Shown: positions 13,202 through 58,226 of the stretch, one piece after another
Layout of the letters: each line of letters opens with the position of its first letter
Numbering within the stretch: the first letter of the stretch is position 1
NCBI GenBank assembly: GCA_963707955.1
Contig: OY970176.1
Location: 1,888,001-1,952,000, forward strand
Source of the DNA: Candidatus Bathyarchaeota archaeon
Lineage (GTDB): Archaea; Thermoproteota; Bathyarchaeia; Bathyarchaeales; Bathycorpusculaceae
Length of the DNA stretch: 64,000 nucleotides
Direction: 5' to 3'
The notes under the pieces: model-generated
Told to the model about the DNA's origin: nothing
What the model saw: the letters and a program-made list of their open reading frames with translations, nothing else
Database searches by the model: none
Made by a program: the position numbers and the translations under genes

Positions 13202-13401
13202 CTTTGTATCGGATATGCTCGGTGGCTAATAAAAGACTTTACACACTTAAGCATGACGCTGAGCGAAAGAATCATGCGCTAGTTGCCTCATTACTAGACT
13301 CGGTTGTTGTGCCTGCAATGTTGTAGAGGATTTATTCCGAACCGCTACTTCTTTATCAGACTACAGCGCGCGCGATGGGTTTCAGCAAAAGAGTTGCGTT
13401 T

Positions 13402-39856: not shown

Positions 39857-40044
39857 AGGTACAACCTTCTGAGTCTAGGTCTTGATGTTTTAGGGAAAAT
39901 TAAAACTTTATGTCTCAACAATACAGCATTTGCTTGGAAAACTCTCCTCTCAGCCCTTTCTGGCAGAAGCAAAGTCTCTATATTCAGAAACGCTTAATTC
40001 AACGTTTTCTTTACGGGAAATAATCACTGGAAGCGACGACACCG

Positions 40045-40905: not shown

Positions 40906-41326
40906 GTCAGTTAATGGCTTTACTGTCTAAGAAAGCTCTGGAGACCTGTTAGGTGAAGATTGCAGTTTCCACAATTATTGGCGACGTCTTCCGCAAACCC
41001 TTTTTTTCTTAAGAACGAGTGTTTGAAATGCGTCCGATTCTGAAGAGTATCGTGACGGAGGGAGCAGACGGGACTGCGGCGCTCAGAATGATTTTCGTTT
41101 ATGATTTTTCGTTGGAGGATCCGATGCGCGCGCTAAACAATTAAAGAACTCTCAAACGGCGAAGTTATCGTCATGCGCGTCCTGTGACCTACCCTCCTCT
41201 AGTATTTTTCCGAGCTTCTAAGAGTCTCCCTGCAGAAGCTTAAACGTCCGCGGAGAGAGCGTGTTAGAAGCGAGGCTGGAAGTGGGCCCTGACTTGTTTT
41301 GCGCTTGAAGTCTGGGGTGAGGCAGA

Positions 41327-41458
41327 GCGAAGAAACGAGTAGAATGGAAGCTCGAAGAGGAGCTGGTTGATCGCATCGACAGGGTAGCTGAGCTTCTCAA
41401 GTCGAACAGGACAGACATCATCAGAAGCGCATGCATCGCTTATTTGAAGATCCGATAG
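41327..41458 (+). pseudogene. CopG-like ribbon-helix-helix protein lacking a canonical start codon
   Basis: AKKRVEWKLEEELVDRIDRVAELLKSNRTDIIRSACIAYLKIR*. The first codon is GCG, 6 nt after a GGGGTGA ribosome-binding site whose TGA is an in-frame stop. Confidence 0.6.
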
Positions 41459-41548
41459 GTATAGGCTCTAGGAAGGGCATCAAGGGTAGAATATGCGATT
41501 TATGAGCGCTCGCCCCCGCTATTGCACAAGCCTTAAATTCTTTTTCAG

Positions 41549-41989
41549 ATGTCGTTCATGATGGTGAATAAAATGCCCAAATACAAAACTACAGCCAAAT
41601 GGATTGAAAATGTTCGCTCGGTAGTTGACAATTCAAGAACCCACAGCGTTGTCTGCGACCTTTCCACCCCCGCGGGTGGAGACGACAAAGGTCCGACTGC
41701 AATTGAACTGGCCATGATGGCCCTAGCAGACTGCGCTGTAACGATATTCGCGGATGTCTGCAAGCAGAGCAAAATTGAAATCACCAAAGTCGAGGCCGTA
41801 GCGGAAGCAGAAAAATCTCCCGACTCTCCCATATTGAGTGGAGTAACCGTGAAGACCAAAGTATGTGCAGCTGCGAGGAAAGAACTGCTGGAGGCCGCGT
41901 GGCGGAGAACTGAGGCAAACTGTCCAGTGCTATCCATATTCAAAGAATCAATTCCCTTGAAAGTGGAATTCGAAGTAGTGCCCAAATAG
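41549..41989 (+). CDS. OsmC-family protein
   Basis: GGDDKGPTAIEL..ALADC ... EANCPV (two catalytic-type cysteines). Confidence 0.88.
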   Translation: MSFMMVNKMPKYKTTAKWIENVRSVVDNSRTHSVVCDLSTPAGGDDKGPTAIELAMMALADCAVTIFADVCKQSKIEITKVEAVAEAEKSPDSPILSGVTVKTKVCAAARKELLEAAWRRTEANCPVLSIFKESIPLKVEFEVVPK

Positions 41990-42035
41990 CCAGAACAGCC
42001 TACTTTAGGCTGAAATGCAGAAAGGAGGTGAGTCC

Positions 42036-42320
42036 TTGCTGTTTGTCGCTACCCATACCCATCAAGCCGCAAAATGTCCGTTACTAACGCCTGAAGGAAA
42101 AACAATGATCAAAATGCTCTTTTCAGATGAGAACGTTAGGAAGTCGGGTCTCAAAATAGTCGGAGCCTATATGAGTTGTCCAAAAGACAAGAGTACTGAC
42201 CATAAAGGTTTCTTCATTATAGACGCCGACAGTGCCTTAACGGTTTCAAAGTTTTTCGGTCAAATGGCAGTTGACGTAAGACCCGTCGTACCCTTCAGCG
42301 AAGTCGCGAAAACCATGTAG
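42036..42320 (+). CDS. Small hypothetical protein (HxH..CP, ferredoxin-like fold suspected; DUF3303-like)
   Basis: FVATHTHQAAKCP..DHKGFFIIDADS..VRPV; TTG start after a GGAGGTGA RBS. Confidence 0.6.
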   Translation: MLFVATHTHQAAKCPLLTPEGKTMIKMLFSDENVRKSGLKIVGAYMSCPKDKSTDHKGFFIIDADSALTVSKFFGQMAVDVRPVVPFSEVAKTM

Positions 42321-42358
42321 CGCCGTCCGAAGAAGCCTATTGGCCTATCCCCTTTTTG

Positions 42359-43012
42359 TCAATAGCGTGCGCTGTGCGTGTCATAGAGTTTGTGTTTATA
42401 GTATCCCTTTGCAGTGTATAATGCTCCAACAGGATTGTGGCACAAGACTCTGTCCTTGGCAACTAAGACTGTTACTAGTGCTCTAGAATACTTGATGAAG
42501 GTGGAGTCATGCCCTACGCAGAGACCTACGATTATGTTCAACTCCGTTTTCGCCTTGTTCATGATTAAGGCTTGTGCCACTGGGTTGCAAATAGGCTCGA
42601 AGGCACCGGGATGTACTTTCTCGCTGTCTTTCAGTCCCAACTCTTCCTTTGGAACGCCGCCAGTCTTGCAGAATACGAAAGTCACCTGAAAGCCATTGGA
42701 TTCGAGAATATCCGTCAGTATTCTTCCTTCCTCGGCTAGTCCTACACAGCAGGCAATACCAAGCTTTGCGAAATTCATCCTTCTGGCAAATTCCATCGTG
42801 TCCTCGACTCTGGTCCACTTCATATAACCCTCTGACTCCACCAGAGCAGAAGCATGAGCTAATTTCGCTACGCCAGGTTTTTCATATTCTTCCCTAGCTT
42901 TCCTTAAAACATCTTTCTCAACGTTCATCGGACAAAAATCCAGCTTGGAAGTAACTCGAGCTCGTTGAGGATGTTCGCACACGAAAACGGTACATTTGCT
43001 ACATTTAACCAC
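42359..43012 (-). CDS. DUF1847-family metal-binding protein
   Basis: CSKC..C..FCP, TRVED, GIACCVGL, CKTGG, CNPVAQA, GLCVGHD, KDRVLCHNP. Confidence 0.88.
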   Translation of the reverse strand: MVKCSKCTVFVCEHPQRARVTSKLDFCPMNVEKDVLRKAREEYEKPGVAKLAHASALVESEGYMKWTRVEDTMEFARRMNFAKLGIACCVGLAEEGRILTDILESNGFQVTFVFCKTGGVPKEELGLKDSEKVHPGAFEPICNPVAQALIMNKAKTELNIIVGLCVGHDSTFIKYSRALVTVLVAKDRVLCHNPVGALYTAKGYYKHKLYDTHSARY

Positions 43013-43172
43013 GATCTTTCCCCGCGAATAGGATAACGTTGTTTCTGCAGAACTTATGTCTTACCCGTCTCGTCACATTGTGAATTCCCATTTGCACCCT
43101 GCGCGCGCGCTGACCATTTATCTTAAATATGCAGAGGCTAAACACGAATCGATATGGTGCAAGGCGATAGTA

Positions 43173-44027
43173 ATGGATGTCAAGATTACCAACATCTACA
43201 ATAATGAGGCTTTGCCCGGGAAAGCCCTCAAAAGTGGGCACGGAGAATGCTTTCATATCGCAATCGGCGACAAACAGATTCTTCTTGATACTGGATGGAA
43301 AGGCGGAAAACTCCTGCATAATATGAAGAGACTGGGAATAGATGCTGATTATATCGATAAGTTGGTGCTTTCGCACGGTCACAGGGATCACACAGGCGGG
43401 TTGAAATCGTTTCTTGGGGTGAGAACAGTCCAGAAACCAGTGCAGATATTTGCGCATCCAAGTGCTATGGAGCCCAAGTCAGCGAAGATATTCTTGTTTC
43501 ACATCTCGATGGGATTGCCAAAGCTTAGTAGGGAACTGACCAAAAAAGCGGAATTCCATCTGACTAAAGATTCAGTTGAAGTGCTTCCGAACCTCGCTAC
43601 GACGGGAGAGATTCCGATTGCGGAACGACTGGAGAAACCGGGGATAGTGACGGGTGCGTTTCATAAGGTTAATGGACGGCGGGAGTGGGATCCTGTCATT
43701 GACGATTTGTCGCTGATTCTTGAAGCAAAAGATGGATTAGTGTTGGTGACTGGTTGCTGTCATGCGGGATTGTTGAATACGTGTGCACGTGCCACACGAC
43801 TCTTCAATGGGAGAATCATTGCCATACTCGGGGGCACTCACATGGTGGAATACTCGCAAGAGGATGTTGACCACGTAGGAGAGGTTCTGGAAAAGGTGTA
43901 TGGAACTCCGGAACTGTACTTGAATCATTGCACCGGAAAAGACGCCATTGGACGACTGAGAGGCAAATTTGGATCAGAAGTAGTACACGATTGCCACGTG
44001 GGCACAGAAGTAGTTTTCAAAATCTAA
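43173..44027 (+). CDS. MBL-fold metallo-hydrolase (MJ0301/Tflp-like)
   Basis: GHGECF, LLDTG, LSHGHRDHTGG, DDLSL, TGCCHAG, GGTHM, NHCTG; start moved to ATG 43173. Confidence 0.88.
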   Translation: MDVKITNIYNNEALPGKALKSGHGECFHIAIGDKQILLDTGWKGGKLLHNMKRLGIDADYIDKLVLSHGHRDHTGGLKSFLGVRTVQKPVQIFAHPSAMEPKSAKIFLFHISMGLPKLSRELTKKAEFHLTKDSVEVLPNLATTGEIPIAERLEKPGIVTGAFHKVNGRREWDPVIDDLSLILEAKDGLVLVTGCCHAGLLNTCARATRLFNGRIIAILGGTHMVEYSQEDVDHVGEVLEKVYGTPELYLNHCTGKDAIGRLRGKFGSEVVHDCHVGTEVVFKI

Positions 44028-44048
44028 GCGCGCGCTAAATTCCGAAAA

Positions 44049-44603
44049 TCATATTGTAAATTCCCATCTACACCACGAGTCTGAAGGGTGCTTGTCTGGT
44101 GGACAGAACAAACAGCCTACTTCTACTTTTGGATTCAGAGTCTTCGCGAAATTCTTCAAATATCTAAACCTTACTCTCTTGCAGGGAAATTCGCACAAAC
44201 CTTTGCCCAGACGAGCCTCCTGAGTCCTGCACCTATCAATGCCAAGGGTAGCCCGTTTGTTTCCGATTTCGATGGTCTTGAAGGGTTGATCCAGTGCCCA
44301 ACTGGATTTGCGTAAAAGACCAATAATCGTTGCTACGTCTGGGTTTTCTCCAACCTTGAACATTCGTTGTAGGCTCTTGGCTTCGATTGCAGCCATGCTC
44401 TCCCAAACCTGAGCATCAATTTCAGTTGCCGCTTTAGTCCCAAACTTCTTTTCGATGCCTAGAAAATACAGGCCATCAACTCTCCAAATGTTGCGAATTT
44501 GCAGAAAGAAATAATCAAACAGTTTCTCCATGGGCATTTCGGCCAGTGTCTCACGGTCTTCTCGACTTCCAGGAGGATATTCACTCATACCTTTCACCAT
44601 CAA
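44049..44603 (-). CDS. DUF6125-like protein
   Basis: VDGLYF..E.KFG...A..ID..VW, CRTQEARL, FPC, CPPD..WCRWEF. Confidence 0.75.
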   Translation of the reverse strand: MMVKGMSEYPPGSREDRETLAEMPMEKLFDYFFLQIRNIWRVDGLYFLGIEKKFGTKAATEIDAQVWESMAAIEAKSLQRMFKVGENPDVATIIGLLRKSSWALDQPFKTIEIGNKRATLGIDRCRTQEARLGKGLCEFPCKRVRFRYLKNFAKTLNPKVEVGCLFCPPDKHPSDSWCRWEFTI

Positions 44604-44702
44604 GAGGCGCTTAAGTAATTGACCGCTATGAAAAGCTATTGTTCTGTTTTCATGTTTTCGGAATGTTGTGTTTCCAGCTTGCGTTGCGAAACCTTTAAGA
44701 GA

Positions 44703-44724
44703 GTTATGAATATATATTCATAAC
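44703..44724. promoter_or_regulatory. Perfect 22-bp palindrome, likely operator of the DUF134 operon
   Basis: GTTATGAATATATATTCATAAC ends 1 nt before the GTG of the DUF134 gene. Confidence 0.65.
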
Positions 44725-44725
44725 C

Positions 44726-45187
44726 GTGCCTAGGCCCAGAATCTGCCGACGAGTATGCTGCGAACCAGGGGTGACGTATTTCAAACCCAGAGGCGTTCCA
44801 ATGACTTCCTTGGAAAGCGTCGGCCTGAGCATGGATGAATTTGAAGCGATACGGTTGAAGGATCACGAGGGATTGGAGCAGACAGCGGCGGCTGACAGTA
44901 TGCGAATATCGCAACCGACATTTCACAGAGTCATAGAGGCGGCAAGAAAGAAGGTGGCTGATGCATTGGTCAATGGCAAAGCAATACGAATAGAAGGAGG
45001 TGAATACATGTCGGACGCAAGTAGAAAATTCAAATGCCTTGATTGCGGCCACGAGTGGGAGGAACCGCATGGGAGAGGAAGACCCGGCGCCTGTCCTAAG
45101 TGCGGAAGCAAGAACATCCATAGGGCTCCCGCGGACAGGGGGTACGCTCGACTTGGAAGAGGCCACAGAGGCCATTTTGAAATATGA
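44726..45187 (+). CDS. DUF134-family HTH protein with C-terminal Zn ribbon
   Basis: [63 protein letters not shown]. Confidence 0.9.
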
Positions 45188-45200
45188 AGGAGTTTTCGAA

Positions 45201-46058
45201 TTGACAAGCACGCAAGAAGTCACAGAGAGAGAAAAACAGTTTTCGGACCAGGAGCAGAAGCTCAGGGCCAAAATGAGCAAGGTCAGGCACAAGATAGCCG
45301 TAATAAGCGGCAAAGGTGGCGTGGGCAAAAGCACGGTGGCAGTGAACCTGGCCGTGGCCCTCGCGATGCATGGACACGCCAACCGGATCGGGATTCTTGA
45401 CGCAGACATACATGGCCCCAGCGTACCAAGAATGCTAGGACTGACAGGCCAAAGACTCAAAGTGGGCCCGCCAGGAGCTTTTCCGGCATCAAGCACGTTG
45501 GGAATAAAGGTTGTCTCCATGGATTTCCTGCTGCCCGATGAAAATGCACCCGTAATCTGGCGTGGACCACTGAAGATGACTGCGATTCGCCAGTTTCTGT
45601 CAGAGATAGTCTGGGGAGACTTAGACATTCTGCTAATTGATCTCCCCCCTGGAACAGGCGATGAACCGCTAAGCATTGCTCAGCTACTACCGGAAATGGA
45701 CGGCGTCGTAATAGTGACAATCCCATCCAAAGTCTCACAAGTGGTCGTTAAGAAATCTATCACCTTTGCTCGGCAGCTCGGAATGCCCATCATCGGCATC
45801 ATCGAAAACATGAGCGGCTTCATCTGTCCTCACTGCGGAAAAAAATCTGACATATTCGAATCTGGCGGCGGACAGAAGATAGCTGAAGAACTGAATATTC
45901 CGTTTCTTGGAAGCATTCCGATAGATCAAGAAATCTGTGAGGATGCTGATAGAGGGGAATCATTCATCGTCGAGCATCCAAACTCGCCAGCTTCAAGGTC
46001 CTTCATGGAAATTGTCAAGAAAATCGAAGATTTCCTGAAACAGAAGGGAAGAAAGTAG
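45201..46058 (+). CDS. mrp: Mrp/NBP35 Fe-S cluster carrier ATPase
   Basis: [44 protein letters not shown]; TTG start after AAGGAG. Confidence 0.93.
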
Positions 46059-46077
46059 TGAAAAAGGAGGTGACACA

Positions 46078-46452
46078 TTGAAAACCACAGTTATTGTTCC
46101 TGTGTCAGATAACAACGGTTTGAACGCTAGGATAGCAGAGCATTTCGGAAGAGCGCCTTTCTATGCTATCGTGGCTTTGGACAATGACGGAAAAGTCGAA
46201 AACGTCGAGACCATGGAAAACAAAGGCGAACATTTCGGGGGCGAAGGACACATGCACGACCACATTCTGGAGCGGAAACCAACCGCGATAATAACCTACG
46301 GAATGGGCCCAAGAGGTTTAACTGGCTTCCAAGAAGCAGGAGTAGCAGTGCTGAAGGCAAATGCAGATACGGTCAAAGACGTAGTCGCTGCATACAAGGA
46401 TGACAAGCTTCAAGAGCTTACCGAAGGCTGCCATCACGCACACCATCACTAG
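46078..46452 (+). CDS. NifB/NifX-family (MTH1175-like) metal-cluster-binding protein
   Basis: HFGRAPFY, GMGPRG, C-terminal CHHAHHH. Confidence 0.88.
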   Translation: MKTTVIVPVSDNNGLNARIAEHFGRAPFYAIVALDNDGKVENVETMENKGEHFGGEGHMHDHILERKPTAIITYGMGPRGLTGFQEAGVAVLKANADTVKDVVAAYKDDKLQELTEGCHHAHHH

Positions 46453-46481
46453 GATTAGAAGTCTAAGGGTTCGGTTCTAGA

Positions 46482-47743
46482 ATGAACGAGAAGAACCAGC
46501 TTTTTAGAAAAGGAGAAAGAGCTGCGATTATTTCTGCAGCTGTTCTCCTAGCGTTCAGCCTTCTGAAAGGCACAGTGTCGGTGATCTCTGGGAGCGTGGC
46601 ATTGCTTGCGGACTCTATTCATTCCTTTGCTGACATTTTTTCCTCGATTGCTGTCTGGGCTGGACTCAAATTAGTTCAGAAAAAACCTACCGAAAGATTT
46701 CCATACGGTTATTACAAAGCAGAAACCTTGGCCTTGCTGATAGTCGCCGTAACGATCGTTGTATCAGGTGTTCTGATCCTGAAAGAAGCTGTGGATAAAC
46801 TGTTCGAACCCGGCGTCGTCCTGTTTCCATCTGCCGTTCTCGCGGTCGCAGCTTTTTCAGGGCTAGTCTCCTACTTTCTTGGCAGGTACAAGAAAGGCGT
46901 GGGAAGCCTTATCGGCTCTCAGTCACTGGTCAGTGAAGGGCAACATTCCCTAGTAGACGTCTACACCTCGTTACTAGTTTTCGTAGGTGTCTTGTTTGCC
47001 AGTCTAGGGTATCCGGTAGCTGAGGTTTTGGCAGGCTTGGCTATTGGGTTGTACGTTATGAAAGTGGGGTTGTGGTTTGGAAAAGATGCGGTGCTGGTTC
47101 TCATGGATGCTTGTTTGAGTCCGCAGAAGGCCAGAGAAATGAAGGAAATAGCCGCGAAGGTGCGAGGAGTAAGAGGAGTGCATGATCTCAGATTGCACAA
47201 ATCAGGACCCGTGTCCTTTGGAGAGATGCACATAGAGGTGGAAGAAGTCTTCCTCTGGAGAAAGCACATGAGATTTCAGATGAGATCGAAGAAATAATCA
47301 GAGAGCGTTTCAAGGACATTGAATCAATCACAATTCATGTAGAACCAGCACAAAAACAGAAAATCAAGGTTGGCATTCCAGTGGTGGAAGACAAGGGATT
47401 GGAATCAAAGACTTCTGCTCATTTTGGCAATGTACCTTTTTTTGCCTTCATAGAACTAGAGAATAACCAAACAAGGAATGTCTATGTCAAGGTCAATAGT
47501 GCGGCAAGAATAGCGAGGAAGAAAGGAATAGGTGCTGCACAGTTCTTAGTAGACGAAAAAGTTGACGCGGTGCTTGCAGGGGATATGGGTGAAGTTCCGT
47601 TTCACCTATTGAGAGACAGCTTAGTTCAGGTATATGCTCTTCCAGAACAGGTTGAACTCAAGGAAGCGATCCGTCTTCTCAACGAGAACAAGCTAGAAAG
47701 AATGACCGTGCCATTCGAGAAAAATGAAACGGATGATAGGTAA
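46482..47743 (+). pseudogene. Cation diffusion facilitator fused to a NifB/NifX domain, frameshifted at ~47248
   Basis: SVALLADSIHSFAD, FPYGYYKAE, HSLVD. The shifted frame reads LPLEKAHEISDEIE..ITIHVEP and runs straight into HFGNVPFF (ORF 47381-47743). Confidence 0.85.
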
Positions 47744-47796
47744 CGCACATTGTGTATCGATGTTATCTCGCGCGTTCTGGACGGTTTAGAGATCAT

Positions 47797-48312: not shown

Positions 48313-48634
48313 CTTTCAGACGTTATTCCTTGCTTCTAGGAGTAAATCTTGAACCGCTTATATGCTTGGCGCGCTAGCGTGTTCCTAAATTCCTTTTTTG
48401 GGAGGGAGTGGGATTGAGTTGCGTATGTTTCTTCAAGAGTTGTGTCATGAAGAAAGAAGTATTAGACCTTTCGCAAACGAATTTAAGAACAAGCATGCGC
48501 GTTCTATTTCCTTGCACTCATTGTTGGAAAACCTCTAGCGACCAAACTTGTAACCGCGCGCGCTAACTGGTTTTTGCTATTTGCCGATGGCTTAGAACCA
48601 GCGCGCGAGAAAGAGGTTGACTGAACGCTAAGAG

Positions 48635-49807: not shown

Positions 49808-49820
49808 CTGAATCCTACTA

Positions 49821-49838
49821 CAATTCAATATTGAATTG
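49821..49838. promoter_or_regulatory. Perfect 18-bp palindrome upstream of the MFS gene
   Basis: CAATTCAATATTGAATTG, 13 nt upstream of the ATG at 49807. Confidence 0.5.
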
Positions 49839-49919
49839 CATATTAATTCATCCGCGTTAGAGCGCGCGCTATGAACGAAATTTGAATTGTAAAAATAAGG
49901 TGGGTGCTTGTTTGTGCTT

Positions 49920-50153
49920 CTAGCCCTCGCCATTCCTTTCGCCAAGGATGATTAAGCCTACGCCGAAGAACTCAATTGCCATTCCCACAGCGATCCAACA
50001 CAAGTCAGCTAACAAGTCTGCTTGCACACCAAAATGAGCATCATTGTTTATTTTGAAAGTTTGCCAAACCGGTACTAACAGACCAATGACGAGAATGATT
50101 ACGCTCAAAATCCTTGGCGCGCGCAGGCTAAATTCCTGCTCGCTCCTATGCAT
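49920..50153 (-). CDS. Small two-TM protein, possibly a 5'-truncated or chimeric fragment
   Basis: Two hydrophobic segments; a GCGCGCGC junction motif (50117-50124) lies within codons 10-13. Confidence 0.4.
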   Translation of the reverse strand: MHRSEQEFSLRAPRILSVIILVIGLLVPVWQTFKINNDAHFGVQADLLADLCWIAVGMAIEFFGVGLIILGERNGEG

Positions 50154-50640: not shown

Positions 50641-50717
50641 TCACAAACACCTTGTCGTGTTACTGGCGCGCGCTACGACAATTACTGTGGACAATAGTCG
50701 TACACCTTCTAAAACAT

Positions 50718-51380
50718 TTATCGGCAGCAAACAATCAGTCTGACTTGGTCACAGGCGTCTTCACATCGATTGGCAACCATTTCAATAGCTTCAAAAAGAT
50801 CATTCAGTAATATGGCGATTCCTACCCGAATCTTCTCCTCTCTGGCGATCAAACGTTTGGAGTTTTCAAATAGGTCGTCGACTTTCTCTTCTAACCGTTC
50901 GACTTCGTCTGCTGCTTTTAAGGCTTCTTCTCGTTTTTCCGGTATGCTATTAACGCATTTTCGCAGTGCTGTGGCACATTCCTTAGCGCCTTCCACCATC
51001 TTGACCAGCGCTTTTTTGAGGTTTTCTGACACATCTTCCATTGGAATGGCACTTAAAACCCGGCTTGATTCCTGGCTACAGTCTGCGACCATGTCGACGG
51101 ACTTCATTAAGTTCATCAGATATTCTCTGTCTGAGGGCGGCAACTCTCCGCACGTCAGTTCAGTCATAACGGCTCTCCTTAATCCATCGGTTTCCTTCTC
51201 AGAGCTTGTGACCCTTCCTATTGCGGCCTTGGCTTCTTTTTCGTTGAGATCAACTGCTGCTTTTACTGCACTTTCAAGGTCTTCAACTGAGCTCAATGTT
51301 ATCGCAAGATGGCGTTGCATCGGAGCTATAGCTTTTGATTCTCTGCGTTTCTCAAACCACTTCAATAGGAGTTCACTCAA
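50718..51380 (-). CDS. DUF47/PhoU-like phosphate transport regulator
   Basis: Duplicated helical repeat: EKETDGLRR..DRE..DMVAD and ERLEEKVDD..E.VANRCEDA.D. Confidence 0.88.
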   Translation of the reverse strand: MSELLLKWFEKRRESKAIAPMQRHLAITLSSVEDLESAVKAAVDLNEKEAKAAIGRVTSSEKETDGLRRAVMTELTCGELPPSDREYLMNLMKSVDMVADCSQESSRVLSAIPMEDVSENLKKALVKMVEGAKECATALRKCVNSIPEKREEALKAADEVERLEEKVDDLFENSKRLIAREEKIRVGIAILLNDLFEAIEMVANRCEDACDQVRLIVCCR

Positions 51381-51495
51381 TAGCTAATTCCTCCCTTAAT
51401 CATCCACATGCATATGCGAATACATAACTTTTTTCGATTGGAAAACTAACCGTAACCTCATTGCCTATGTTGGGCGCGCGATTATCTTGAGTCTT

Positions 51496-51930
51496 TCAGT
51501 TTTCCGTGATGCCTCTGTCTTTCAGCCATGTTTTTATCTTTTCGCTGATTTTATCGCGAACTTCTCGGAATTTGGCTAATTTTTCCTCTTCTGTTCCTTG
51601 AAATGCTGCTGGGTCTTCGAAGGGCCAGTACAATCTAGTGGATGCCCCCGGTATGGTAGGACACGTCTTTTCTGCTTTTTCACATGCTGTTATGACTATC
51701 CCGAAATGTATCTTTCCCAGATACTGTTTCAACTCTTTTGGATGCTGGTCGCTCAGGTTATATCCCAGTTCTCCCATCACCTTAATGGTGTACGGGTGGA
51801 TAGGTCGAGGTTCGAAGCCTGCACTGTAAACCTCGAAACGATTACCCGCATATTTCCTTAGGAACGCTTCAGCCATTTGGCTCCGTGCCGAATTTCCTGT
51901 GCATAGAAAAATGACTTTGGTCTTTTCCAA
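51496..51930 (-). CDS. arsC: LMW-PTP-type arsenate reductase (copy 2)
   Basis: FLCTGNSARSQMAEA, TACEKAEKTCP redox pair, WPFEDPA, FREVRD. Confidence 0.92.
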   Translation of the reverse strand: MEKTKVIFLCTGNSARSQMAEAFLRKYAGNRFEVYSAGFEPRPIHPYTIKVMGELGYNLSDQHPKELKQYLGKIHFGIVITACEKAEKTCPTIPGASTRLYWPFEDPAAFQGTEEEKLAKFREVRDKISEKIKTWLKDRGITEN

Positions 51931-52014
51931 GTCTTAATCACAGCCTCACTTCAGTACTAGAGCGCGCGACAAACAGAATTTTCTTCATAGTTCCAACCTC
52001 AGACAGAAGTATTA

Positions 52015-52245
52015 CTACAGTTTCCTATTTCTAAGAGGGTTGCAGTGGCTCTCTTCAATCATCTGCGTAACATCCATTAACATGTCCTGTGCTTCCGCCA
52101 CCAAATCACCAGCTTTTCGCTTTGTACCTTGGCGGTTCTTTATGTAGTCCTCAATTTCCCTTTGCAGAGAGAGAAGGTCGATACTCGTCTGTTCAGTTTT
52201 GAGTAACCGGTACTTTCTGCTTATTTCCTCATAGCTTGCATCCAT
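52015..52245 (-). CDS. Hypothetical 76-aa helical protein, last gene of the DGC/GcvH operon
   Basis: AGGAGA RBS, 18 nt after gcvH; amphipathic helices ending EESHCNP. Confidence 0.65.
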   Translation of the reverse strand: MDASYEEISRKYRLLKTEQTSIDLLSLQREIEDYIKNRQGTKRKAGDLVAEAQDMLMDVTQMIEESHCNPLRNRKL

Positions 52246-52263
52246 GATGGCTTGATCTCCTCT

Positions 52264-52737
52264 CTACGTCTTGTTTGCAGCGTGCGGACCCTTCAGTTGC
52301 TCATGTTCTTTCTCAACTTTCTTCTTCATGACCTCAAAATACCCTTCGGCGTCTGCGAGGTTCTCTTTGTCTGATTCAAAGTCTGTTAGCTCAATCTTCA
52401 GAAACCAGCCTTTGCCGTACGGATCTGAATTGGCCAGGTCAGGTGAATTTACCAATTCATTGTTGACTTCCACTACTGAACCTGAAACAGGCGATATGAC
52501 GTCGAGAGCAGCCTTTACTGATTCAAAAGATCCTGCTTCACCGAACTGTTCAATTACGGTCCCGATTTGTGGGAGGGAAACGAAGATTATGTCACTCAAA
52601 TGATTTTGCAGGTAGGACGTTATGCCAACTGTGGCGATATTCCCGTCGATTCTGGCCCAGAAATCGTTTTCATTGTAGAAAAACCCTTTCGGGACCGTGA
52701 ACGTCCATTTGTCAACCTTTAGCTCTAACGATTCCAT
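52264..52737 (-). CDS. gcvH: GcvH-like lipoyl-carrier protein
   Basis: W.RIDG..ATVGIT, FESVKA (lipoyl-Lys), SPVSG.V.EVN, NSDPYGKGW. Confidence 0.9.
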   Translation of the reverse strand: MESLELKVDKWTFTVPKGFFYNENDFWARIDGNIATVGITSYLQNHLSDIIFVSLPQIGTVIEQFGEAGSFESVKAALDVISPVSGSVVEVNNELVNSPDLANSDPYGKGWFLKIELTDFESDKENLADAEGYFEVMKKKVEKEHEQLKGPHAANKT

Positions 52738-52742
52738 TCACT

Positions 52743-53138
52743 TCACCTTGAAAGCTGATCGACGAGCGTGGCCACTTCTTCAGCTATCTTGGCTACAAGC
52801 TTTTCTCCTTCGTCTCCAATGTCGGTTCGTGACTGTGGTTTTAGCCCGTACTTAGCGATCATTTGGGGCAGAAACACTTTGGCTCTCATCATGCCTTTGT
52901 TCTTGGAGACGATCTTGGTGGCACACCTTTCCACACAACCGTCAAGTATGATAGACGGATATTTCTGCAATAGGCTCTTGTACTCTCCGACTCCTGCGGT
53001 CAAAGATGGAATACATATTAGGACTGCTTTTTCGGGCCTCAATTCGTCAACTACCTTGTATGCGACTTGTCTAGCTACCGTGCCGAGTGCTTTGCCCATG
53101 CCCGTACAGGCTACTATGGCAACTTTCTTATCGTCCAT
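52743..53138 (-). CDS. DGC-domain putative Zn/Fe-S-binding protein (4 of 4)
   Basis: VACTG..LICIP..LDGCVERCA; start taken at MDDKK. Confidence 0.85.
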   Translation of the reverse strand: MDDKKVAIVACTGMGKALGTVARQVAYKVVDELRPEKAVLICIPSLTAGVGEYKSLLQKYPSIILDGCVERCATKIVSKNKGMMRAKVFLPQMIAKYGLKPQSRTDIGDEGEKLVAKIAEEVATLVDQLSR

Positions 53139-53550
53139 GCTTGTCCCCCTCTGCAAGTATTTGGTCAATCTTTTTCGCGGCCAGCTCTCCCACTATTTCT
53201 GCAAGTTTCATTCCTTTTGGTCCTAGCTTAGCTCTCGATTCAGGCTGAAGGTCTTTGTATTCTTTCAGAACATCTTCAACGTTGATAACGGCTTTGATCT
53301 GCCCCTTCGCTTCATTGACTATCTTTTCGCAGCATTTTTCTCCACAGCCATCGATAACCAAAATTGGGTTCTCTTTGGCAAAGGTCATGTCCTCTTTAAC
53401 GCCACCTATTAGGGCTGGAGTGCAAAGCAAGACAGTCTTGTCTGGCCTCAGTTTTTCTAGAACATGATATCCCGCGTATCGGGACACTGTTGCAAGCGGT
53501 CGGTCCATGCCCGTGCAAACAGCAACGGCAACCTTCTTTTCTATTGACAT
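53128..53550 (-). CDS. DGC-domain protein (3 of 4)
   Basis: AVCTG..LLCTP..IDGCGEKCC. Confidence 0.85.
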   Translation of the reverse strand: MSIEKKVAVAVCTGMDRPLATVSRYAGYHVLEKLRPDKTVLLCTPALIGGVKEDMTFAKENPILVIDGCGEKCCEKIVNEAKGQIKAVINVEDVLKEYKDLQPESRAKLGPKGMKLAEIVGELAAKKIDQILAEGDKHGR

Positions 53551-53551
53551 G

Positions 53552-53956
53552 CTACTCTTCTTCCTCCTCTAGTCTGTCTATCTCCGCAGTAATACGTTTC
53601 ATAGTTTCTCTAACAAGCTTCTCGTCTTGAGGTTCTATTCTGCTTTTTGATTTAGGGTTAAGATGTTTATGTTTTTCTTCAATGTCTGATATGATTATTG
53701 ACGATTTGGGATGCACTTTGCCGTACATTTTGACGCCTTTGGCGGCACACATCTTGCCACAGCCGTCAACGGTTATGCAAGGATTATCCTTAGCGAAGTC
53801 TCTCTCTTCTTGTCCGCCTGCGAGAAAGAGTGGAAGGCAGATTGTTACGACATCGTCGCGTTCCTCTAGTATTCTTCGAGTTGCTACGCGGGATATCATT
53901 CCTTCAGGAAGCCCTTCTCCGCTGCAGGAGATCAGGCCTATTTTGCGTTTGATCAA
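53552..53956 (-). CDS. DGC-domain protein (2 of 4)
   Basis: ISCSG..TICLP..CITVDGCGKMCA. Confidence 0.85.
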   Translation of the reverse strand: MIKRKIGLISCSGEGLPEGMISRVATRRILEERDDVVTICLPLFLAGGQEERDFAKDNPCITVDGCGKMCAAKGVKMYGKVHPKSSIIISDIEEKHKHLNPKSKSRIEPQDEKLVRETMKRITAEIDRLEEEEE

Positions 53957-54357
53957 CTTTTATCCCCTATGATTTTGACAGCTTTTTCGGCTGTTTTTCT
54001 TGCCAGTTTCTCACCGTCAGGTCCGATGTCAAGCACGGTTCCAGGCTTAAGCTTCGGATTCTCCTTGATCACGTCCAGGATCCTGATGCTTCCTTTGAGT
54101 TCTCCGTGATGGTGTTCAACATTTTTCTTGGCACATTGAGCAACGCAGCCATCTAGGGTTATGCAAGGGTTCTTTCTTATTTTCCGCACAGTCTCCTCGT
54201 CTTCGATTGTGAGTAAAGGAAGACAAATAGAATCAGTATCATTCGGCAACAGTTCTTCGGTTACGATGTACGTGGCTCTACGCGTTATGGTTCCCAGTGC
54301 CTTTCCGATTCCGCTACACGGGATGATTATGTACTTACTTTTTTTCTTCTCTGACAT
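53953..54357 (-). CDS. DGC-domain protein (1 of 4)
   Basis: IPCSG..SICLP..CITLDGCVAQCA. Confidence 0.85.
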   Translation of the reverse strand: MSEKKKSKYIIIPCSGIGKALGTITRRATYIVTEELLPNDTDSICLPLLTIEDEETVRKIRKNPCITLDGCVAQCAKKNVEHHHGELKGSIRILDVIKENPKLKPGTVLDIGPDGEKLARKTAEKAVKIIGDKS

Positions 54358-54625
54358 TCTTTATCACCTTCAGGATTTCCTTCTTCTCTGGGAAACTCAG
54401 GGCGTCCGCAGCGCAAACTTTGGAACACGCCCTGCAGAACACGACGCAGTTGTTCGGGTTTTTGACGATGAATTCCTTCTTTTCCTTGTTGTATTCGAAC
54501 ACTCCATGGGGGCAGAATCTGAGGCATTGCGGGTCGCCCTCGCACTGGTTACATTTTAATGTATCGATCTTTGGGCACCAAGGGATTTTGCTTCGTGGAA
54601 CTCCCATGTATGTTTCTTCTGTCAT
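54335..54625 (-). CDS. 2x[4Fe-4S] ferredoxin
   Basis: GVPRSKIPWCP.ID..KCNQC....QCLRFCPHGVF and NCVVFCRACSKVC...ALSFP. Confidence 0.88.
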   Translation of the reverse strand: MTEETYMGVPRSKIPWCPKIDTLKCNQCEGDPQCLRFCPHGVFEYNKEKKEFIVKNPNNCVVFCRACSKVCAADALSFPEKKEILKVIKNVREEKK

Positions 54626-54990
54626 GGCTGGCTGCTGGCCTCCAGCGCTTTCTTCACGGTTTCTAAGGCCTTTTCGGTCGTCATATTCCTGACGTCAAGA
54701 GAAACTAGGTCTTTGTTTATGTCAAGTCCTGCCTTTGCAAAGGCGTCTCGAAACAGTTTCTTCTGCATAACTGGGGCACATCCTCCTATGACATAGAGTC
54801 TGTCTTTTCGGAGAAAGTCTGCAAAGAAACGTTCCCCGTCTTCATCGCAGAGCATGGGATGGATGAATGCGTATTCAACTGGATACTCTGCTCTTATGAC
54901 GTTTATGAAATCCCACATATCCAAATCTTTGAACCCAGGGCACTTGCCCGTGCAGACACAGAATATGAAGCTTACTTTTCTTTTTTCCAC
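54622..54990 (-). CDS. Stand-alone protein resembling the HdrA N-terminal Fe-S domain
   Basis: FIFCVCTGKC..MLC..G..VIGGCAP.MQKKLF..AG...LDVR parallels VFICHCG..YTC..VVASCTP.THEPLF..AG..TNIR of the HdrA proteins in this window. Confidence 0.7.
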   Translation of the reverse strand: MEKRKVSFIFCVCTGKCPGFKDLDMWDFINVIRAEYPVEYAFIHPMLCDEDGERFFADFLRKDRLYVIGGCAPVMQKKLFRDAFAKAGLDINKDLVSLDVRNMTTEKALETVKKALEASSQP

Positions 54991-55053
54991 GAACTATTCC
55001 TCTTCTGGCATATCTCGATTGACTTTTTTGACCACGCGGATACAGAAGAGTTC

Positions 55054-55077
55054 ATAGCAATATTTAAATATTGTTAT
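55054..55077. promoter_or_regulatory. Palindromic operator overlapping a symmetric TATA box between arsR and the divergent operon
   Basis: ATAGCAATATTTAAATATTGTTAT; the core CAATATTTAAATATTG (55058-55073) is a perfect palindrome. Confidence 0.7.
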
Positions 55078-55093
55078 TACTCTTATCGTAAGC

Positions 55094-55420
55094 ATGCATT
55101 CCAAAGCAGAGAAACTCGTCAAGTTCAAGGCAAAGATTTTCAACGCCCTATCGGACCCGACGAGACTTGAAATCCTCGAATTCCTACGCATCAATGAGAA
55201 ATGCGTGTGCGAAATAATTCCGCACGTTGGATTAATCCAGCCCGTGGTATCCCGCCATTTGAGAATTCTCAAAGACTGTGGACTGGTGAGGGACAGAAAA
55301 GACGGCAACAAAAGACTCTATTCAATTACAGATCGCAGAATATTCGAGATAATTGATGCGGCGACCCTTGAACTGATGGATGATATTTCAAAACGTATCG
55401 TTGAAGAATTGGTTTATTAG
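55094..55420 (+). CDS. arsR: ArsR/SmtB-family repressor with CVC metalloid-binding site
   Basis: FNALSDPTRLEIL, EKCVCEI, QPVVSRHLRILKDCGLV..RKDG...YS. Confidence 0.93.
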   Translation: MHSKAEKLVKFKAKIFNALSDPTRLEILEFLRINEKCVCEIIPHVGLIQPVVSRHLRILKDCGLVRDRKDGNKRLYSITDRRIFEIIDAATLELMDDISKRIVEELVY

Positions 55421-55425
55421 CTTAG

Positions 55426-57840
55426 GTGAGCGTTTTGGTCGGTCCAGACAAAGAACAGGAATTGTTAGGAACAAACTTAGAAAATGGACTAGAAACTCTT
55501 GAAGCCCAGAGAAGGCTTGAAGAGTATGGATACAATGAGATCTCCGAGAAGAAAGAGAGTTTTTTCGTAAGGCTTGGAAAACGTTTCTGGGGCATCGTGC
55601 CTTGGATGCTGGAAGCCACAGCAGTCATTACGTTTCTACTGGGTAAGTATCCGCAGACGCTCGTCATCGTGTTCCTTCTTTTCTTCAACGCTGCAATGTC
55701 ACTGTGGCGAGAGAAAAGAGCGAAAGTGGCAATGACCGCGTTGAAGCAGAGGCTGCGGATCCAGGGAAGAGTTAAGAGGGACGGAAAATGGTCAATCATC
55801 CCGGCTAGGGAACTTGTTCCGGGTGACCTTGTAAGAGTCAGGGCAGGCGACTTGTTGCCAGCGGACGTGAGAATCATTGACGGTTCTTTCGGCGTTGATC
55901 AGTCAGCCCTCACCGGCGAATCCATAATCGTGGAAAGGTCCACTGGAGAAATAGCTTATTCAGGATCAGCGGTCAAACGCGGTGAAGCTACGGGCACAGT
56001 CGATGCCACGGGAACAAAGACTTACTTTGGGAAAACGGTTTCACTGCTGGAGCTTGCAAAACCTAAACTGCACATGGAGGAGGTAACAGTCAAAGTTGCG
56101 CACCGACTTCTCACAATAGTGCTTGTATCTCTTCTAGCCGTCTTCGTGTACGCTCTTCTGACAGGTTTCCCACTTGATGTGCTGCTGCCGCTTGCAGGCG
56201 TACTCCTTGTGGCTTCTGTGCCCGTTGCAATGCCGACCATGTTCACTGTAAATATGGCACTTGGATCGTCAGCGCTTGCGAAGCAAGGAGTCCTTGTTAC
56301 AAGACTCAGTGCAAGCGAGGACGCAGCTACTATGGACGTGTTATGCGCAGACAAGACAGGCACAATCACTATGAATAAACTCTTCATAGAAGAGGAAATA
56401 CCGACTGATGGATTCAGCAAAAGCGACGTTTTGCTCTACGGGGCGCTCGCGTCGAAAGAAGCTAATCAAGACCCCATAGACACAGCATTTTTAGTGGCCG
56501 CAGCTGAGGAACACATCTCATTAGACAGTTACTCACAGATGGAGTTCCTGCCGTTTGATCCTAAAACTAGAATGACAGAAGCTACGATTCAGAAATCGGG
56601 TGAAACATTCTTTGTGGGAAAAGGATCATTCGACGCCATATGCGTTTCCTGCAATTTGTCAGATAAGGAGACAAAAGATCTGTTCAGACATGCTGAGGCA
56701 CTCTCGGCTAAGGGATTTAGAGTGATTGCTGTTGCTAGGGGGAGTCATAGAAGCAGGCTTCAGTTAGTGGGTCTCACAGGGGTAGCCGACAGGATAAGGG
56801 AAGACTCGCGAGGTGCATTAAACCGAATCCGCGATTTGGGCATATCTGTAAAGATGCTTACGGGTGATGCGCTCCCGATTGCAAGAAACATCGCCCAGCA
56901 AGTAGGACTAGGCGACAAAATAACCCGAATGTCAAAGATTGAAAAGATCCAGAATCAAAGAGAGACTCTTGACTCCACGGTTGAAGACAGTGATGGCATT
57001 GCTGAGATTTACCCTGAAGACAAGTTCACTATAGTGAAGGCTCTCCAGGACCGCGGGCATGTGGTCGGAATGACCGGAGACGGCATAAATGACGCTCCCG
57101 CATTGGGGCAGGCAGAAGTGGGAATAGCAGTAAGGAACGCAATGGACATTGCCAAAGATTCGGCAAGTGCCGTGCTCACTGCTGAGGGTCTTGGAGGCAT
57201 AATAGCTATGATCAAGACGTCGAGGACAATTTACCAGCGAATCTATAGCTGGGCGTTGATGATGGTCGCTCGGAAACTGCATATCGTCGGGTACATTGTT
57301 GTTATGCTGTTTTTAACTCACTCCTTCATGCTGTCAATTACTGGCACGGTGCTGCTGCTTTTCCTAGGCGACTTCGTCTCGATGTCTATATCGACGGATA
57401 ACGTGCAGTCTTCTTCGAAGCCTGATTCGTTCAAAGTTTCGCGGCTGTTTGGAGTCAGCGGATCATTAGGAATATTAATGGTAATTGAAAGTGCAGTTCT
57501 CACCGTGGCTGGTTTGTCATATTTCGGGCTGACCGGCAGCGTGGACAAGATCTACACATTCGGGTTTGCTTATTTGAATCTTGCAGGAGTATTCACTCTC
57601 ATGATCGTACGTGAACGGAATCATTTCTGGAAGTCACGGCCCAGCAATTTTCTAAGCATCACAGTCACGGCGGAAATCCTGTTTGTGATTGCGATTTCGC
57701 TCTTAGGCTTCCTAGAACTTGCTCCACTCGGCTGCATACCCGTACTTACAATCTTGGGCTATACATTAATAGTGACGTTTCTGATCAATGACCCCGTCAA
57801 GGTATATCTGATACGCAAATTCAAAAGCGGTCCACAATGA
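55426..57840 (+). CDS. P-type ATPase, type IIIA (plasma-membrane H+-ATPase)
   Basis: DQSALTGES, VPVAMP, CADKTGTIT, PFDP, MLTGD, PEDK, TGDGINDAPAL, TM6 Asp (LGDF), STDNV. Confidence 0.92.
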   Translation: MSVLVGPDKEQELLGTNLENGLETLEAQRRLEEYGYNEISEKKESFFVRLGKRFWGIVPWMLEATAVITFLLGKYPQTLVIVFLLFFNAAMSLWREKRAKVAMTALKQRLRIQGRVKRDGKWSIIPARELVPGDLVRVRAGDLLPADVRIIDGSFGVDQSALTGESIIVERSTGEIAYSGSAVKRGEATGTVDATGTKTYFGKTVSLLELAKPKLHMEEVTVKVAHRLLTIVLVSLLAVFVYALLTGFPLDVLLPLAGVLLVASVPVAMPTMFTVNMALGSSALAKQGVLVTRLSASEDAATMDVLCADKTGTITMNKLFIEEEIPTDGFSKSDVLLYGALASKEANQDPIDTAFLVAAAEEHISLDSYSQMEFLPFDPKTRMTEATIQKSGETFFVGKGSFDAICVSCNLSDKETKDLFRHAEALSAKGFRVIAVARGSHRSRLQLVGLTGVADRIREDSRGALNRIRDLGISVKMLTGDALPIARNIAQQVGLGDKITRMSKIEKIQNQRETLDSTVEDSDGIAEIYPEDKFTIVKALQDRGHVVGMTGDGINDAPALGQAEVGIAVRNAMDIAKDSASAVLTAEGLGGIIAMIKTSRTIYQRIYSWALMMVARKLHIVGYIVVMLFLTHSFMLSITGTVLLLFLGDFVSMSISTDNVQSSSKPDSFKVSRLFGVSGSLGILMVIESAVLTVAGLSYFGLTGSVDKIYTFGFAYLNLAGVFTLMIVRERNHFWKSRPSNFLSITVTAEILFVIAISLLGFLELAPLGCIPVLTILGYTLIVTFLINDPVKVYLIRKFKSGPQ

Positions 57841-57841
57841 T

Positions 57842-57886
57842 GCTCAATTTCAAAAAAGCGCGCGTGCTTTCAAATTGAGCGCGCTC
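57842..57886. terminator. Hairpin directly after the ATPase stop, containing GCGCGC motifs
   Basis: GCTCAATTT..AAAGC-GCGCGT-GCTTT..AAATTGAGC, overlapping a second palindrome GAGCGCGCTC. Confidence 0.4.
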
Positions 57887-58045
57887 TCTCCATACGGACA
57901 AAGTGTGAAAGCTTAAAAGCGTGTGCGATGCGGAATCTATTCTACAGTGAAAATCCTTTTTTAAGTATTCTGTGGCTACGTCCTCAAGCAAGAGAGATAA
58001 ACGTGGCAGTAGGAGTGGCTTTTGATGAGGCATAAACGTAGTGAG

Positions 58046-58192
58046 TTGGCAGAGCAGAGACGATTCAAAACAAGCGATGAATTTACCGTCAGAGTTGCCA
58101 GCAAACCGGAGGAGATCAAGCAACTACTTGAAGTGGGCTTTGACTTCGTCTGCGAAAAAGATGAGCTTCTCTACTTTAGAAAACGTAAATAG
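58046..58192 (+). mobile_element. Probable C-terminal remnant of a tyrosine recombinase/integrase
   Basis: LAEQRRFKTSDEFTVRVASKPEEIKQLLEVGFDFVCEKDELLYFRKRK*. Recognised from memory as the tail of Bathyarchaeia integrases; no catalytic domain visible upstream. Confidence 0.6.
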
Positions 58193-58226
58193 GCGCTAAA
58201 CACTTAACCAAAACAGGGAAAAACGA

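Follow-up and report, generated by a model that had tools for sequence, protein, structure and literature searches.

A short GC palindrome between genes and at structural-variant junctions in a Bathyarchaeota chromosome

The palindrome in the window

Bases 1888001-1952000 of the single 2,346,764-bp contig (47.9% GC) of a Candidatus Bathyarchaeota archaeon, here called genome G000, make up the 64-kb stretch analysed in this study (the window). It holds a 17.3-kb island flanked by direct repeats, several gene units that vary between related genomes and populations, and copies of a short alternating GC palindrome, GCGCGCGC, which is the motif with which this report is concerned. The small-subunit rRNA of the genome is archaeal (1474 bits). 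Genes were called with a simple caller of our own (2138 genes, 77% coding coverage), and all divisions into intergenic and coding DNA given below rest on these calls.

The window contains 9 overlapping matches to GCGCGCGC at 8 loci: 13366, 41126, 43101 (with 43103, the two forming one 10-mer), 44028, 48556, 49862, 50117 and 50666. Dinucleotide shuffles of the window (n=100) gave a mean of 0.80 copies and a maximum of 4, and 0/100 reached 9. An earlier reading of this DNA, made from the letters and open reading frames (ORFs) and referred to here as the sequence-only reading, had named the same eight loci and estimated fewer than one such 8-mer per 64 kb by chance; both statements agree with these counts. 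The dinucleotide TA follows the motif at five of the eight loci (41126, 44028, 48556, 49862 and 50666), and shorter variants are present at 47769, 48369, 48601, 51474, 51962, 57858 and 36304, again as that reading had it (with 36302 for the last). No longer repeat surrounds the 8-mer at the window copies, and no Rfam family matches the window at gathering thresholds.

All copies had been placed at gene boundaries. The copy at 44028 does directly follow the TAA stop of a metallo-beta-lactamase-fold (MBL-fold) gene, and with our crude gene calls six of the eight are clearly intergenic; the exceptions are the copy at 43101, which lies 9 nt within the MBL-fold gene as called, and the copy at 49862, which is upstream of the called start of an MFS gene yet within its longest ORF. 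Gene labels given in advance held for the TrmO/tsaA-like gene, the MFS gene, the two LMWPc (ArsC-type) genes and the DUF47 gene. The label "cupin", given without coordinates, did not: the ORF at 52015-52245, taken as the candidate, has no Pfam match. Features of the window are collected in Table 1.

Table 1. Features of the window, in window coordinates; a dot marks features that carry no strand.
Feature	Position	Strand	Supporting observation
(GC)4 palindrome copy outside the island	13366..13374	.	motif count
Left copy of 17-bp direct repeat GTGAAGATTGCAGTTTC	40953..40969	+	G001: single copy at uninterrupted junction
Decayed integrated element (island), with 7/8 window motif loci	40970..58226	.	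absent at locus in G001; rearranged in G007
Motif copy	41126..41133	.	G000/G007 homology block begins 41127
One-mismatch variant GCGTGCGC at rearrangement joint	42365..42372	.	blocks end/start 42362/42365
Variable unit, MBL-fold gene, motif just inside each end (43101-43110, 44028-44035)	43099..44085	+	missing as a unit in peat population
Variable unit, DUF6125 gene body	44108..44608	-	one population: replaced by 21 letters containing GCGCGCGC
MITE-A copy (48375-48497) between GCGCGC and GCGCG	48369..48502	.	absent in G007 and two metagenome populations
Motif copy between TrmO-like and MFS genes	48555..48563	.	motif count
Motif copy	49862..49869	.	G007 block end 49857; metagenome joint 49867->44635 inside copy
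Motif copy	50117..50124	.	inverted G007 block starts 50119
Variable unit, DUF47 + LMWPc genes, GC runs just inside both ends (50666-50673; 51962-51968)	50653..51973	-	homology blocks, contigs
Two short GC runs (GCGCGCG, GCGCGC) 3' of P-type ATPase gene	57858..57884	.	G007 block end 57857
C-terminal stump of tyrosine integrase, ~49 residues + stop	58043..58192	+	protein comparison
Right copy of 17-bp direct repeat; first 17 bases of CbiA/ParA-type (P-loop) ATPase gene	58227..58243	+	

Abundance and shape of the motif across the chromosome

Across the 2.35-Mb chromosome GCGCGCGC has 464 matches at 419 loci and is the commonest 8-mer palindrome. Its phase-shifted form CGCGCGCG, lying in the same runs, is second with 239 copies, and the next unrelated 8-mer palindrome has 132, a number that the AT-alternating palindromes do not exceed. 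Fully intergenic matches number 412 (89%), with 38 in coding DNA and 14 across a boundary. A first-order model predicts about 6 intergenic copies, giving an excess of about 70-fold, and the other all-GC 8-mer palindromes have 1-9 intergenic copies each, the exception being CGCGCGCG with 212, which overlap the same runs. Coding DNA is not avoided, its 38 copies comparing with 11.9 ± 3.7 in codon-order shuffles. With 9 matches the window is below the chromosome-wide average of about 12.5 in 64 kb (range 4-33); the motif, taken by the sequence-only reading as a feature of this region, is instead genome-wide, and class-wide but patchy (see below).

The extended consensus is (T)A-(GC)4-T(A), with A at position -1 and T at position +8 in 241/464 matches each, and T as the first flank base in 558 of the 910 flanks of runs of at least 8 nt. 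GC run lengths peak at 8 and stop at 10-11 (6 nt, 348; 7 nt, 186; 8 nt, 267; 9 nt, 130; 10 nt, 56; 11 nt, 2). No conservation extends past 2-3 bases on either side of the 8-mer in this genome, and the flanks are unique insofar as 100 of 1978 belong to any repeat family.

A perfect copy is found in 297/1861 intergenic regions and a copy with at most one mismatch in 517/1861; among regions of at least 300 bp, 50-65% hold such a copy. Convergent regions hold a copy most often (25.6%), followed by divergent (17.9%) and tandem regions (12-13.5%). Densities per kb are 1.06, 0.62 and 0.55-0.79, respectively, similar enough across the three types to indicate that the motif is neither promoter- nor terminator-specific, which argues against a protein-binding site. 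Upstream of called starts 18 copies lie at 0-40 nt versus 69 at 40-100 nt. The motif is not scarce after stops, and 26/455 runs abut a stop codon where the null gives 7.3 (max 16). An RNA stem formed between nearby copies was considered and dropped, because spacing below 150 bp is the same as for random placement in intergenic DNA.

The densest stretch of the genome, 806-886 kb, has nearly every gene singly bracketed by the motif, in mixed orientation. It contains integrases, regulators, three GNATs, a flavodoxin, a glycosyltransferase, a PLD-type nuclease and QueT, together with gene fragments of Cas1 and of a GTPase. The Cas1 fragment is a 166-aa ORF (862663-863163) that covers only the C-terminal third of the protein (profile positions 179-279), and a motif copy lies 10 nt past its stop. 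A 43-bp repeat with a hairpin core occurs in the same stretch at 848536, 854811, 858599 and 859838; two of its four copies are just downstream of intact integrase genes (847225-848073 and 853339-854286), and the repeat may be the att site of those two integrases.

Motif copies at structural-variant junctions

For our main comparison G000 was aligned with one 790,451-bp contig of the congener G007. The alignment consists of 129 blocks of at least 300 bp that cover 78% of the contig, mostly at 84-94% identity, and it is heavily rearranged. Block ends lie within 2 bp of a G000 motif copy in 21/258 cases, with about 2.2 expected, and within 10 bp in 23/258; the corresponding null is 4.9 (max 12, n=500) for random intergenic positions and 6.3 (max 14, n=500) for random positions in the same intergenic region. 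Seen from the motif, 27 of the 47 G000 loci near aligned DNA are within 22 bp of a block edge. When junctions are separated by class, a run of at least 8 nt lies within 12 bp of 8/43 pure indels, 9/46 replacements and 11/34 rearrangement joints (19-32%), where the chance level is 1.1% per boundary and about 4.4% per junction.

The intergenic density of the motif follows the same division, at 0.12 loci per kb in aligned interiors (11 loci/93.8 kb), 0.93 in unaligned DNA (71/76.3 kb) and 2.68 at block edges (21/7.8 kb). Across these three classes, control GC 6-mers and the GC content of intergenic DNA stay level. The proposal that the motif marks gene junctions would have fitted poorly with a motif equally common between core genes, or with synteny breakpoints lying elsewhere in a related genome. 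The motif is instead about 8 times rarer per kb in conserved than in variable intergenic DNA, and breakpoints coincide with it about ten times as often as expected; with neither of those two outcomes found, the junction idea stands in part.

Several patterns recur when junctions are read at base level. There are empty sites with one copy that correspond to inserts flanked by two, a case in which 143 bp are replaced by 7092 bp between two copies, inserts that start with the motif (one of 13.4 kb), and many one-sided cases, with the motif retained next to a single conserved flank. No transposase was found in the inserts, and their cargo is ordinary. Several single-gene units look as if gained or lost at the motif, yet most indels lack it. 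At G000 1249-1259 kb, where polarity was sought, each genome has different content between the anchors. Within the window the G000/G007 block ends are at 41127, 42362/42365, 48375, 49857, 50119, 50652, 51964 and 57857, and part of the region is inverted and moved between the two genomes.

Two further differences between the genomes were recorded beside GC runs. A 1912-bp insert at G000 1450361-1448448, with a HAD-type hydrolase and an acetyltransferase-like gene, is bordered on one side by the 3' end of a tRNA-like sequence and on the other by a GC run; G007 has 28 nt in its place. A 323-bp repeat present once in G000 (2247530-2247852) occurs twice in G007 (556062-556379 and 709503-709822), both G007 copies directly after a GC run.

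Variable gene units and other populations

Metagenome contigs from four runs, three belonging to a study from which G000 may come and one a peat sample, were compared with window positions 40001-59000. Their joint 43098->44086 skips the MBL-fold gene; this unit is also unaligned in G001, which lacks the DUF6125 gene there as well. At the joint 44107->44609, which removes the DUF6125 gene body, the motif is the sole filler. It is again the sole filler at 46737->47717, a joint that falls within a cation-efflux gene and has no motif copy beside it in the window. A further joint, 49867->44635, starts inside the 49862 copy, and 50652->51974 skips the pair of DUF47 and LMWPc genes, a unit that is absent in G007, G003 and population X3 and present in G009. 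Since the motif is rare in conserved DNA, dense at block edges and found at these population joints, the junction idea of the sequence-only reading is partly supported.

Two observations concern the neighbourhood of these units. A 22-nt imperfect direct repeat, attgtgaattcccatttgcacc / attgtaaattcccatctacacc (43071-43098 and 44058-44080), lies outside the motif pair that brackets the MBL-fold gene, and may be the duplicated 3' end of a DUF6125-type gene. The block 52264-57840, inverted in its entirety between G000 and G007, consists of a GcvH-like gene, four DGC-domain paralogues, a 4Fe-4S ferredoxin, an ArsR-type regulator and a P-type ATPase.

Turnover of motif copies

Within aligned blocks 8/20 G000 loci and 8/16 G007 loci are intact in the other genome, and in aligned DNA the identity of the motif (82%) compares with 87% for its flanks. 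Most of the aligned copies that are not intact differ by one or two substitutions, with one clean motif-only indel. Intergenic near-variants of the motif exceed expectation in G000, with 850 one-mismatch copies (about 140 expected) and 2702 two-mismatch copies (about 1463 expected), and transitions exceed transversions among their mismatches. We read these data as copies that arise perfect and are then not kept in place by selection, and we infer that the cloud of near-variants is the decay of once-perfect copies.

Distribution across Bathyarchaeia

GCGCGCGC is present in 29-434 copies in all 10 congeners, in 0-14 copies in the other genera of the family and in 53 copies in one genome of another family. 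A survey of the class covered 251 genomes, in which the extended form AGCGCGCGCT was counted against its reversed control. G000 has 114 copies versus 3 for the control, and an excess is found in other genera of f1 (30, 35, 40), in f26 (up to 119) and in f31 (up to 131), with a comparable excess also in f27, f29, f36 and f37. The reversed control has 0-5 copies in the motif-rich genomes of the survey. Most surveyed genomes have 0-5 copies of AGCGCGCGCT, and the distribution is patchy.

The motif-rich genome G107, a single contig of 39% GC from another family (f31), was sampled over 400 kb. It has 83 loci in this sample, and 109 of the 124 matches are intergenic; the flanks are again A...T, and the runs reach 14 nt where the maximum in G000 is 11. 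No stretch of G000 matches the G107 sample at more than 72.8% identity, so the motif signal is not carried by recent exchange between these two genomes.

An IS5-type transposon family and the shorter variants

An IS5-type element (PF01609, DDE_Tnp_1) and two families of miniature inverted-repeat transposable elements (MITE-A and MITE-B) end on GCGCGC. The IS5-type copy of G000 (1671438-1672545) is degenerate, and intact copies are present in G003, G006, G121, G256 and G063. The ends of the element read GCGCGC|NNGCNTGTYSCWAAAT, with GCGCGC on both sides in five lineages, and the same family is bounded by GCGCGC also in motif-poor genomes. One empty/filled pair shows a 6-bp GCGCGC target duplication; G001 and G007 both lack the element, for which the simplest reading is an insertion in G000. 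Comparison of the G007 contig with G000 gave paired flanks for 5/13 MITE copies and 1 clean empty site.

For variants of 6-7 nt a transposase, inverted termini and a target duplication were thus all found. Terminus-like flanks occur at 60/1068 flanks of 6-7-nt runs and at 6/910 flanks of runs of at least 8 nt. With such flanks rare at the longer runs, and with a transposase that does not track the motif (see below), the IS5-type family is not the generator of the 8-mers; it exploits GC runs and explains part of the short variants, the window MITE at 48375-48497 among them.

MITE-A, exemplified by G000 597760-597974, has about 24 copies of about 210 bp, and MITE-B (564478-564659) about 6-8 copies of 182 bp. 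A third family, MITE-C (1188509-1188693), has about 22 copies of about 200 bp, and a palindromic repeat of 60-110 bp with the core catatttggatccaaatatccatg has about 9-10 copies. G121 alone has 25 PF01609 matches.

Candidate enzymes

Several enzyme families were compared with the distribution of the motif as possible drivers, and none tracks it. The IS5-type transposase is found in 31/59 genomes of the motif-poor f24 and in 0/10 of the motif-rich f31, and PF01609 has no match in G107, which is single-contig and motif-rich, in G115 or in G235. TnpB is absent from G000, and the Y1/RAYT transposase (PF01797) is absent from G000 and from all 10 f31 genomes. C5 methylase (PF00145) is likewise missing in G000, with a match in 3/31 genomes, and Vsr was not found in G000 and was found in 9/251 genomes. 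N4/N6 methylases are ubiquitous (PF01555 in 28/31 genomes) and thus uninformative. Ku occurs in G000 and in many genomes poor in the motif, whereas in f31 and f26 it is limited to 1/10 and 1/13 genomes. The tyrosine integrase subfamily of the island is widespread, with its closest relatives in motif-poor genomes. Next to the motif, GNAT paralogues and surface proteins are the only gene families in several copies. An excision-footprint model was set aside, with just 2/60 indels of 6-12 nt involving a GC run, 1 of them clean.

The 17.3-kb island

Seven of the eight window loci lie in the island. In G001 window positions 40000-40969 are joined directly to 58227-58999. The 17-bp direct repeats at both ends, the single copy at the empty site in G001 and the integrase stump at one end identify the stretch as a decayed element integrated by a tyrosine integrase, or else as a deletion between the repeats in G001. 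An integrase-like remnant had been noticed at the end of the region by the sequence-only reading, and this observation was borne out: the 55-aa ORF at 58025-58189 aligns, at 70-90% identity, with the C-terminal ends of PF00589 integrases 398-486 aa long; about 49 residues survive, and GCGCTAAA follows the stop. With Pfam and NCBIfam alone the stump went unrecognised. It belongs to a classical integration event bounded by the 17-bp direct repeat and not by the GC motif, which subdivides the interior of the island. Relatives of the island integrase were not found in viral contigs with a single-protein query, which reaches close relatives only.

Discussion

We propose, with a probability of roughly 0.4, that GCGCGCGC is a break-and-rejoin site that bounds exchangeable gene units. 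Units the size of a gene would be gained, lost, exchanged or turned around, with the motif at one end or at both. The motif is often found a short way within both ends of a variable unit, or adjoining a stop codon. Perfect new copies would appear together with such events and would later decay by point mutation. Breakage and joining would take place at the palindrome itself through a sequence-specific activity, either a recombinase or a nuclease followed by ligation, and the motif may multiply by travelling with the moved DNA. The sequence-only reading had inferred crossover scars or target sites of a recombinase that stacks single-gene units; the link to junctions holds, and a recombinase that tracks the motif was not found. 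A more specific form of the proposal, which we regard as doubtful, would have an enzyme system that recognises the 10-12-bp site (T)A(GC)4T(A), cuts and rejoins it, and so makes the DNA between copies into invertible, exchangeable cassettes in several lineages of Bathyarchaeia.

A number of observations weigh against a break-and-rejoin site. None of the enzyme families checked follows the motif, and a palindrome of 8-12 bp is shorter than the sites of known tyrosine and serine recombinases. About 68-81% of junctions, depending on class, have no run of at least 8 nt (35/43 pure indels). In about half of the exact coincidences read by eye the motif is present in only one of the two genomes, which does not agree with simple reciprocal recombination between sites already there. 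Cause cannot be told from effect, since fragility alone would place the motif at block edges and in unaligned DNA. The junction statistics come from one genome pair, G000 and one G007 contig, and from a crude gene caller; polarity was read for one insert only, and weakly; and the metagenome contigs were matched at 90% likeness and may stem from other strains or species.

Fragility is itself the basis of a rival explanation, in which a hypermutable (GC)n run arises in place by substitution and slippage and persists only outside genes, and Z-type DNA provokes breaks, beside which structural variation accumulates without a dedicated enzyme. Alternating GC is the classic Z-DNA-prone sequence. A 2014 survey ties such tracts to instability (PMC4060949), and the runs described here would be predicted to take a non-B form. 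The maximum run length differs by lineage (11 in G000, 14 in G107), indels of 1-2 nt in GC runs account for 4/1005 small indels, and loci present in one genome only mostly differ by 1-2 substitutions in aligned DNA, all of which would suit a run that mutates in place; the failure to find an enzyme correlate among the families checked would suit it too, and the gradient in density from aligned to unaligned DNA to edges could be survivorship. We nevertheless hold this explanation to be unlikely. The flanks are sequence-specific, with T favoured and AGCGCGCGCT far above its reversed control; run lengths peak at 8 and end at 10-11 with no tail; and every unrelated 8-mer palindrome, also those of alternating AT, stays at or below 132 copies in the genome. 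Point mutation of 8-10 specified bases would hardly produce an excess of about 70-fold, and at one deletion joint within a gene, at a place without a copy in the window, the motif is the sole filler. In the same survey, GC runs of at least 6 and of at least 8 nt are suppressed or normal across phyla (PMC4060949). A binding site for a host protein, such as a boundary or insulator protein or a nucleoid protein, with its density under selection and with fast turnover especially beside new genes, we consider less likely still. It would account for a pervasive motif that is palindromic as the sites of dimers are, scarce 0-40 nt upstream of starts and common right after stops, and present in 50-65% of the longer intergenic regions. 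Against it, conservation in aligned DNA is no better than that of the flanks, the motif is depleted 8-fold in conserved intergenic DNA, and perfect 8-10-mers would not readily evolve de novo beside each insert.

Two explanations borrow from known genome parasites and drives. The motif might be a by-product of IS5-type elements and MITEs, left as target duplications, termini or excision footprints. Copies bounded by GCGCGC in five lineages, the 6-bp duplication at the empty/filled pair, some 30 copies of MITE-A and MITE-B and the terminus-like flanks of short runs all fit this origin. The flanks of runs of at least 8 nt do not, PF01609 is common in motif-poor f24 and was not found in the 10 genomes of motif-rich f31 or in G107, motif-only small indels are rare (1 clean case in 619 kb), and close pairs are not in excess; a transposon by-product is improbable, and as a general source of the 8-mers it is largely refuted. 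HIP1-like drive, by a cytosine methyltransferase with biased short-patch repair or by a bias in uptake or transformation, is the least probable of the explanations and would be surprising here; the five readings together do not take up all of the probability. HIP1 is also a GC-rich octameric palindrome in large excess and is reported to be linked to orphan methyltransferases and, more recently, to transformation. However, neither PF00145 nor Vsr was found in G000, both are rare elsewhere, and coding DNA has only 38 copies, whereas such drives act in genes too.

Comparison with known systems finds partial likeness in each case. HIP1 is abundant within genes, and deletions that end at HIP1 copies have been reported. 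In two papers, HIP1 (GCGATCGC) of cyanobacteria is an octameric GC-rich palindrome, restricted to lineages and over-represented tens- to hundreds-fold, whose function was long unclear (PMC5861425, PMC4390886), and one of them reports it as conserved and under selection (PMC5861425). The present motif resembles it as a hyper-abundant octameric palindrome (464 copies) and differs in that HIP1 is tied to orphan methyltransferases while G000 has no C5 methylase, and in being 89% intergenic, not conserved copy by copy, and archaeal. A term search of Elhai 2015 (PMC4390886) gave no GCGCGC, "archaea" or "intergenic".

The units here recall integrons, insofar as they are single-gene units with a recurring site often at or after a stop codon and with presence or absence between strains. 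The attC site of integrons is an imperfect inverted repeat of 57-141 bp. The sequence-only reading had called the system integron-like but without attC; no attC-like imperfect inverted repeat was indeed seen, and the likeness is limited by the units, which are not co-oriented, lie chromosome-wide and in some cases hold gene fragments. An IntI-type integrase and attI were not found, and none of the 9 PF00589 matches of G000 is in the window. Neisseria dRS3/NIMEs involve a short inverted repeat with hundreds of intergenic copies that brackets variable segments and is a hot spot of integration and rearrangement, the 20-bp dRS3 being used by a known phage recombinase. Here, too, an intergenic inverted repeat brackets variable segments; the differences are a site of 8-12 bp and an archaeal host.

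REPs, which are spread by a Y1 (RAYT) enzyme, have conserved flanks and are imperfect palindromes of 20-40 nt that form hairpins. REP/BIME and REPIN sequences share with our motif the hundreds of intergenic palindromic copies, the patchy lineages and, reportedly, their use as targets of insertion sequences (PMC3116915). The unit described here is only 8-12 bp, too short to self-fold, its flanks are unique, and no Y1 transposase occurs in G000 or in the 10 f31 genomes. Z-DNA-prone (CG)n fragile sites have the same sequence and a link to deletion and rearrangement, as stated in PMC4060949, and differ from the form found here, which is fixed in length, flank-specific and enriched about 70-fold. 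According to that survey, alternating GC tracts are in general suppressed or normal in prokaryotes (PMC4060949), so an enrichment of about 70-fold at 39% and 48% GC is an outlier. Our literature search, with subscription journals and supplementary files outside it, found no description of this motif in archaea.

Little is known of how the Bathyarchaeia, abundant and mostly uncultured archaea of sediment and peat, acquire and shuffle accessory genes. With a short palindrome of fixed form at roughly one in four structural-variant junctions, there is a sequence handle on this gene shuffling: the motif predicts where strains differ, can be looked for in long reads as circles, inversions and deletions, and offers a bait with which to find the protein responsible. 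Should there be a dedicated enzyme that breaks and rejoins DNA at the motif, its very small site would make it a site-specific tool of a new kind. If the cassette system outlined above were also real, it would be an archaeal, chromosome-wide counterpart of the integron, without attC or IntI, and the spread of the motif would record hundreds of events.

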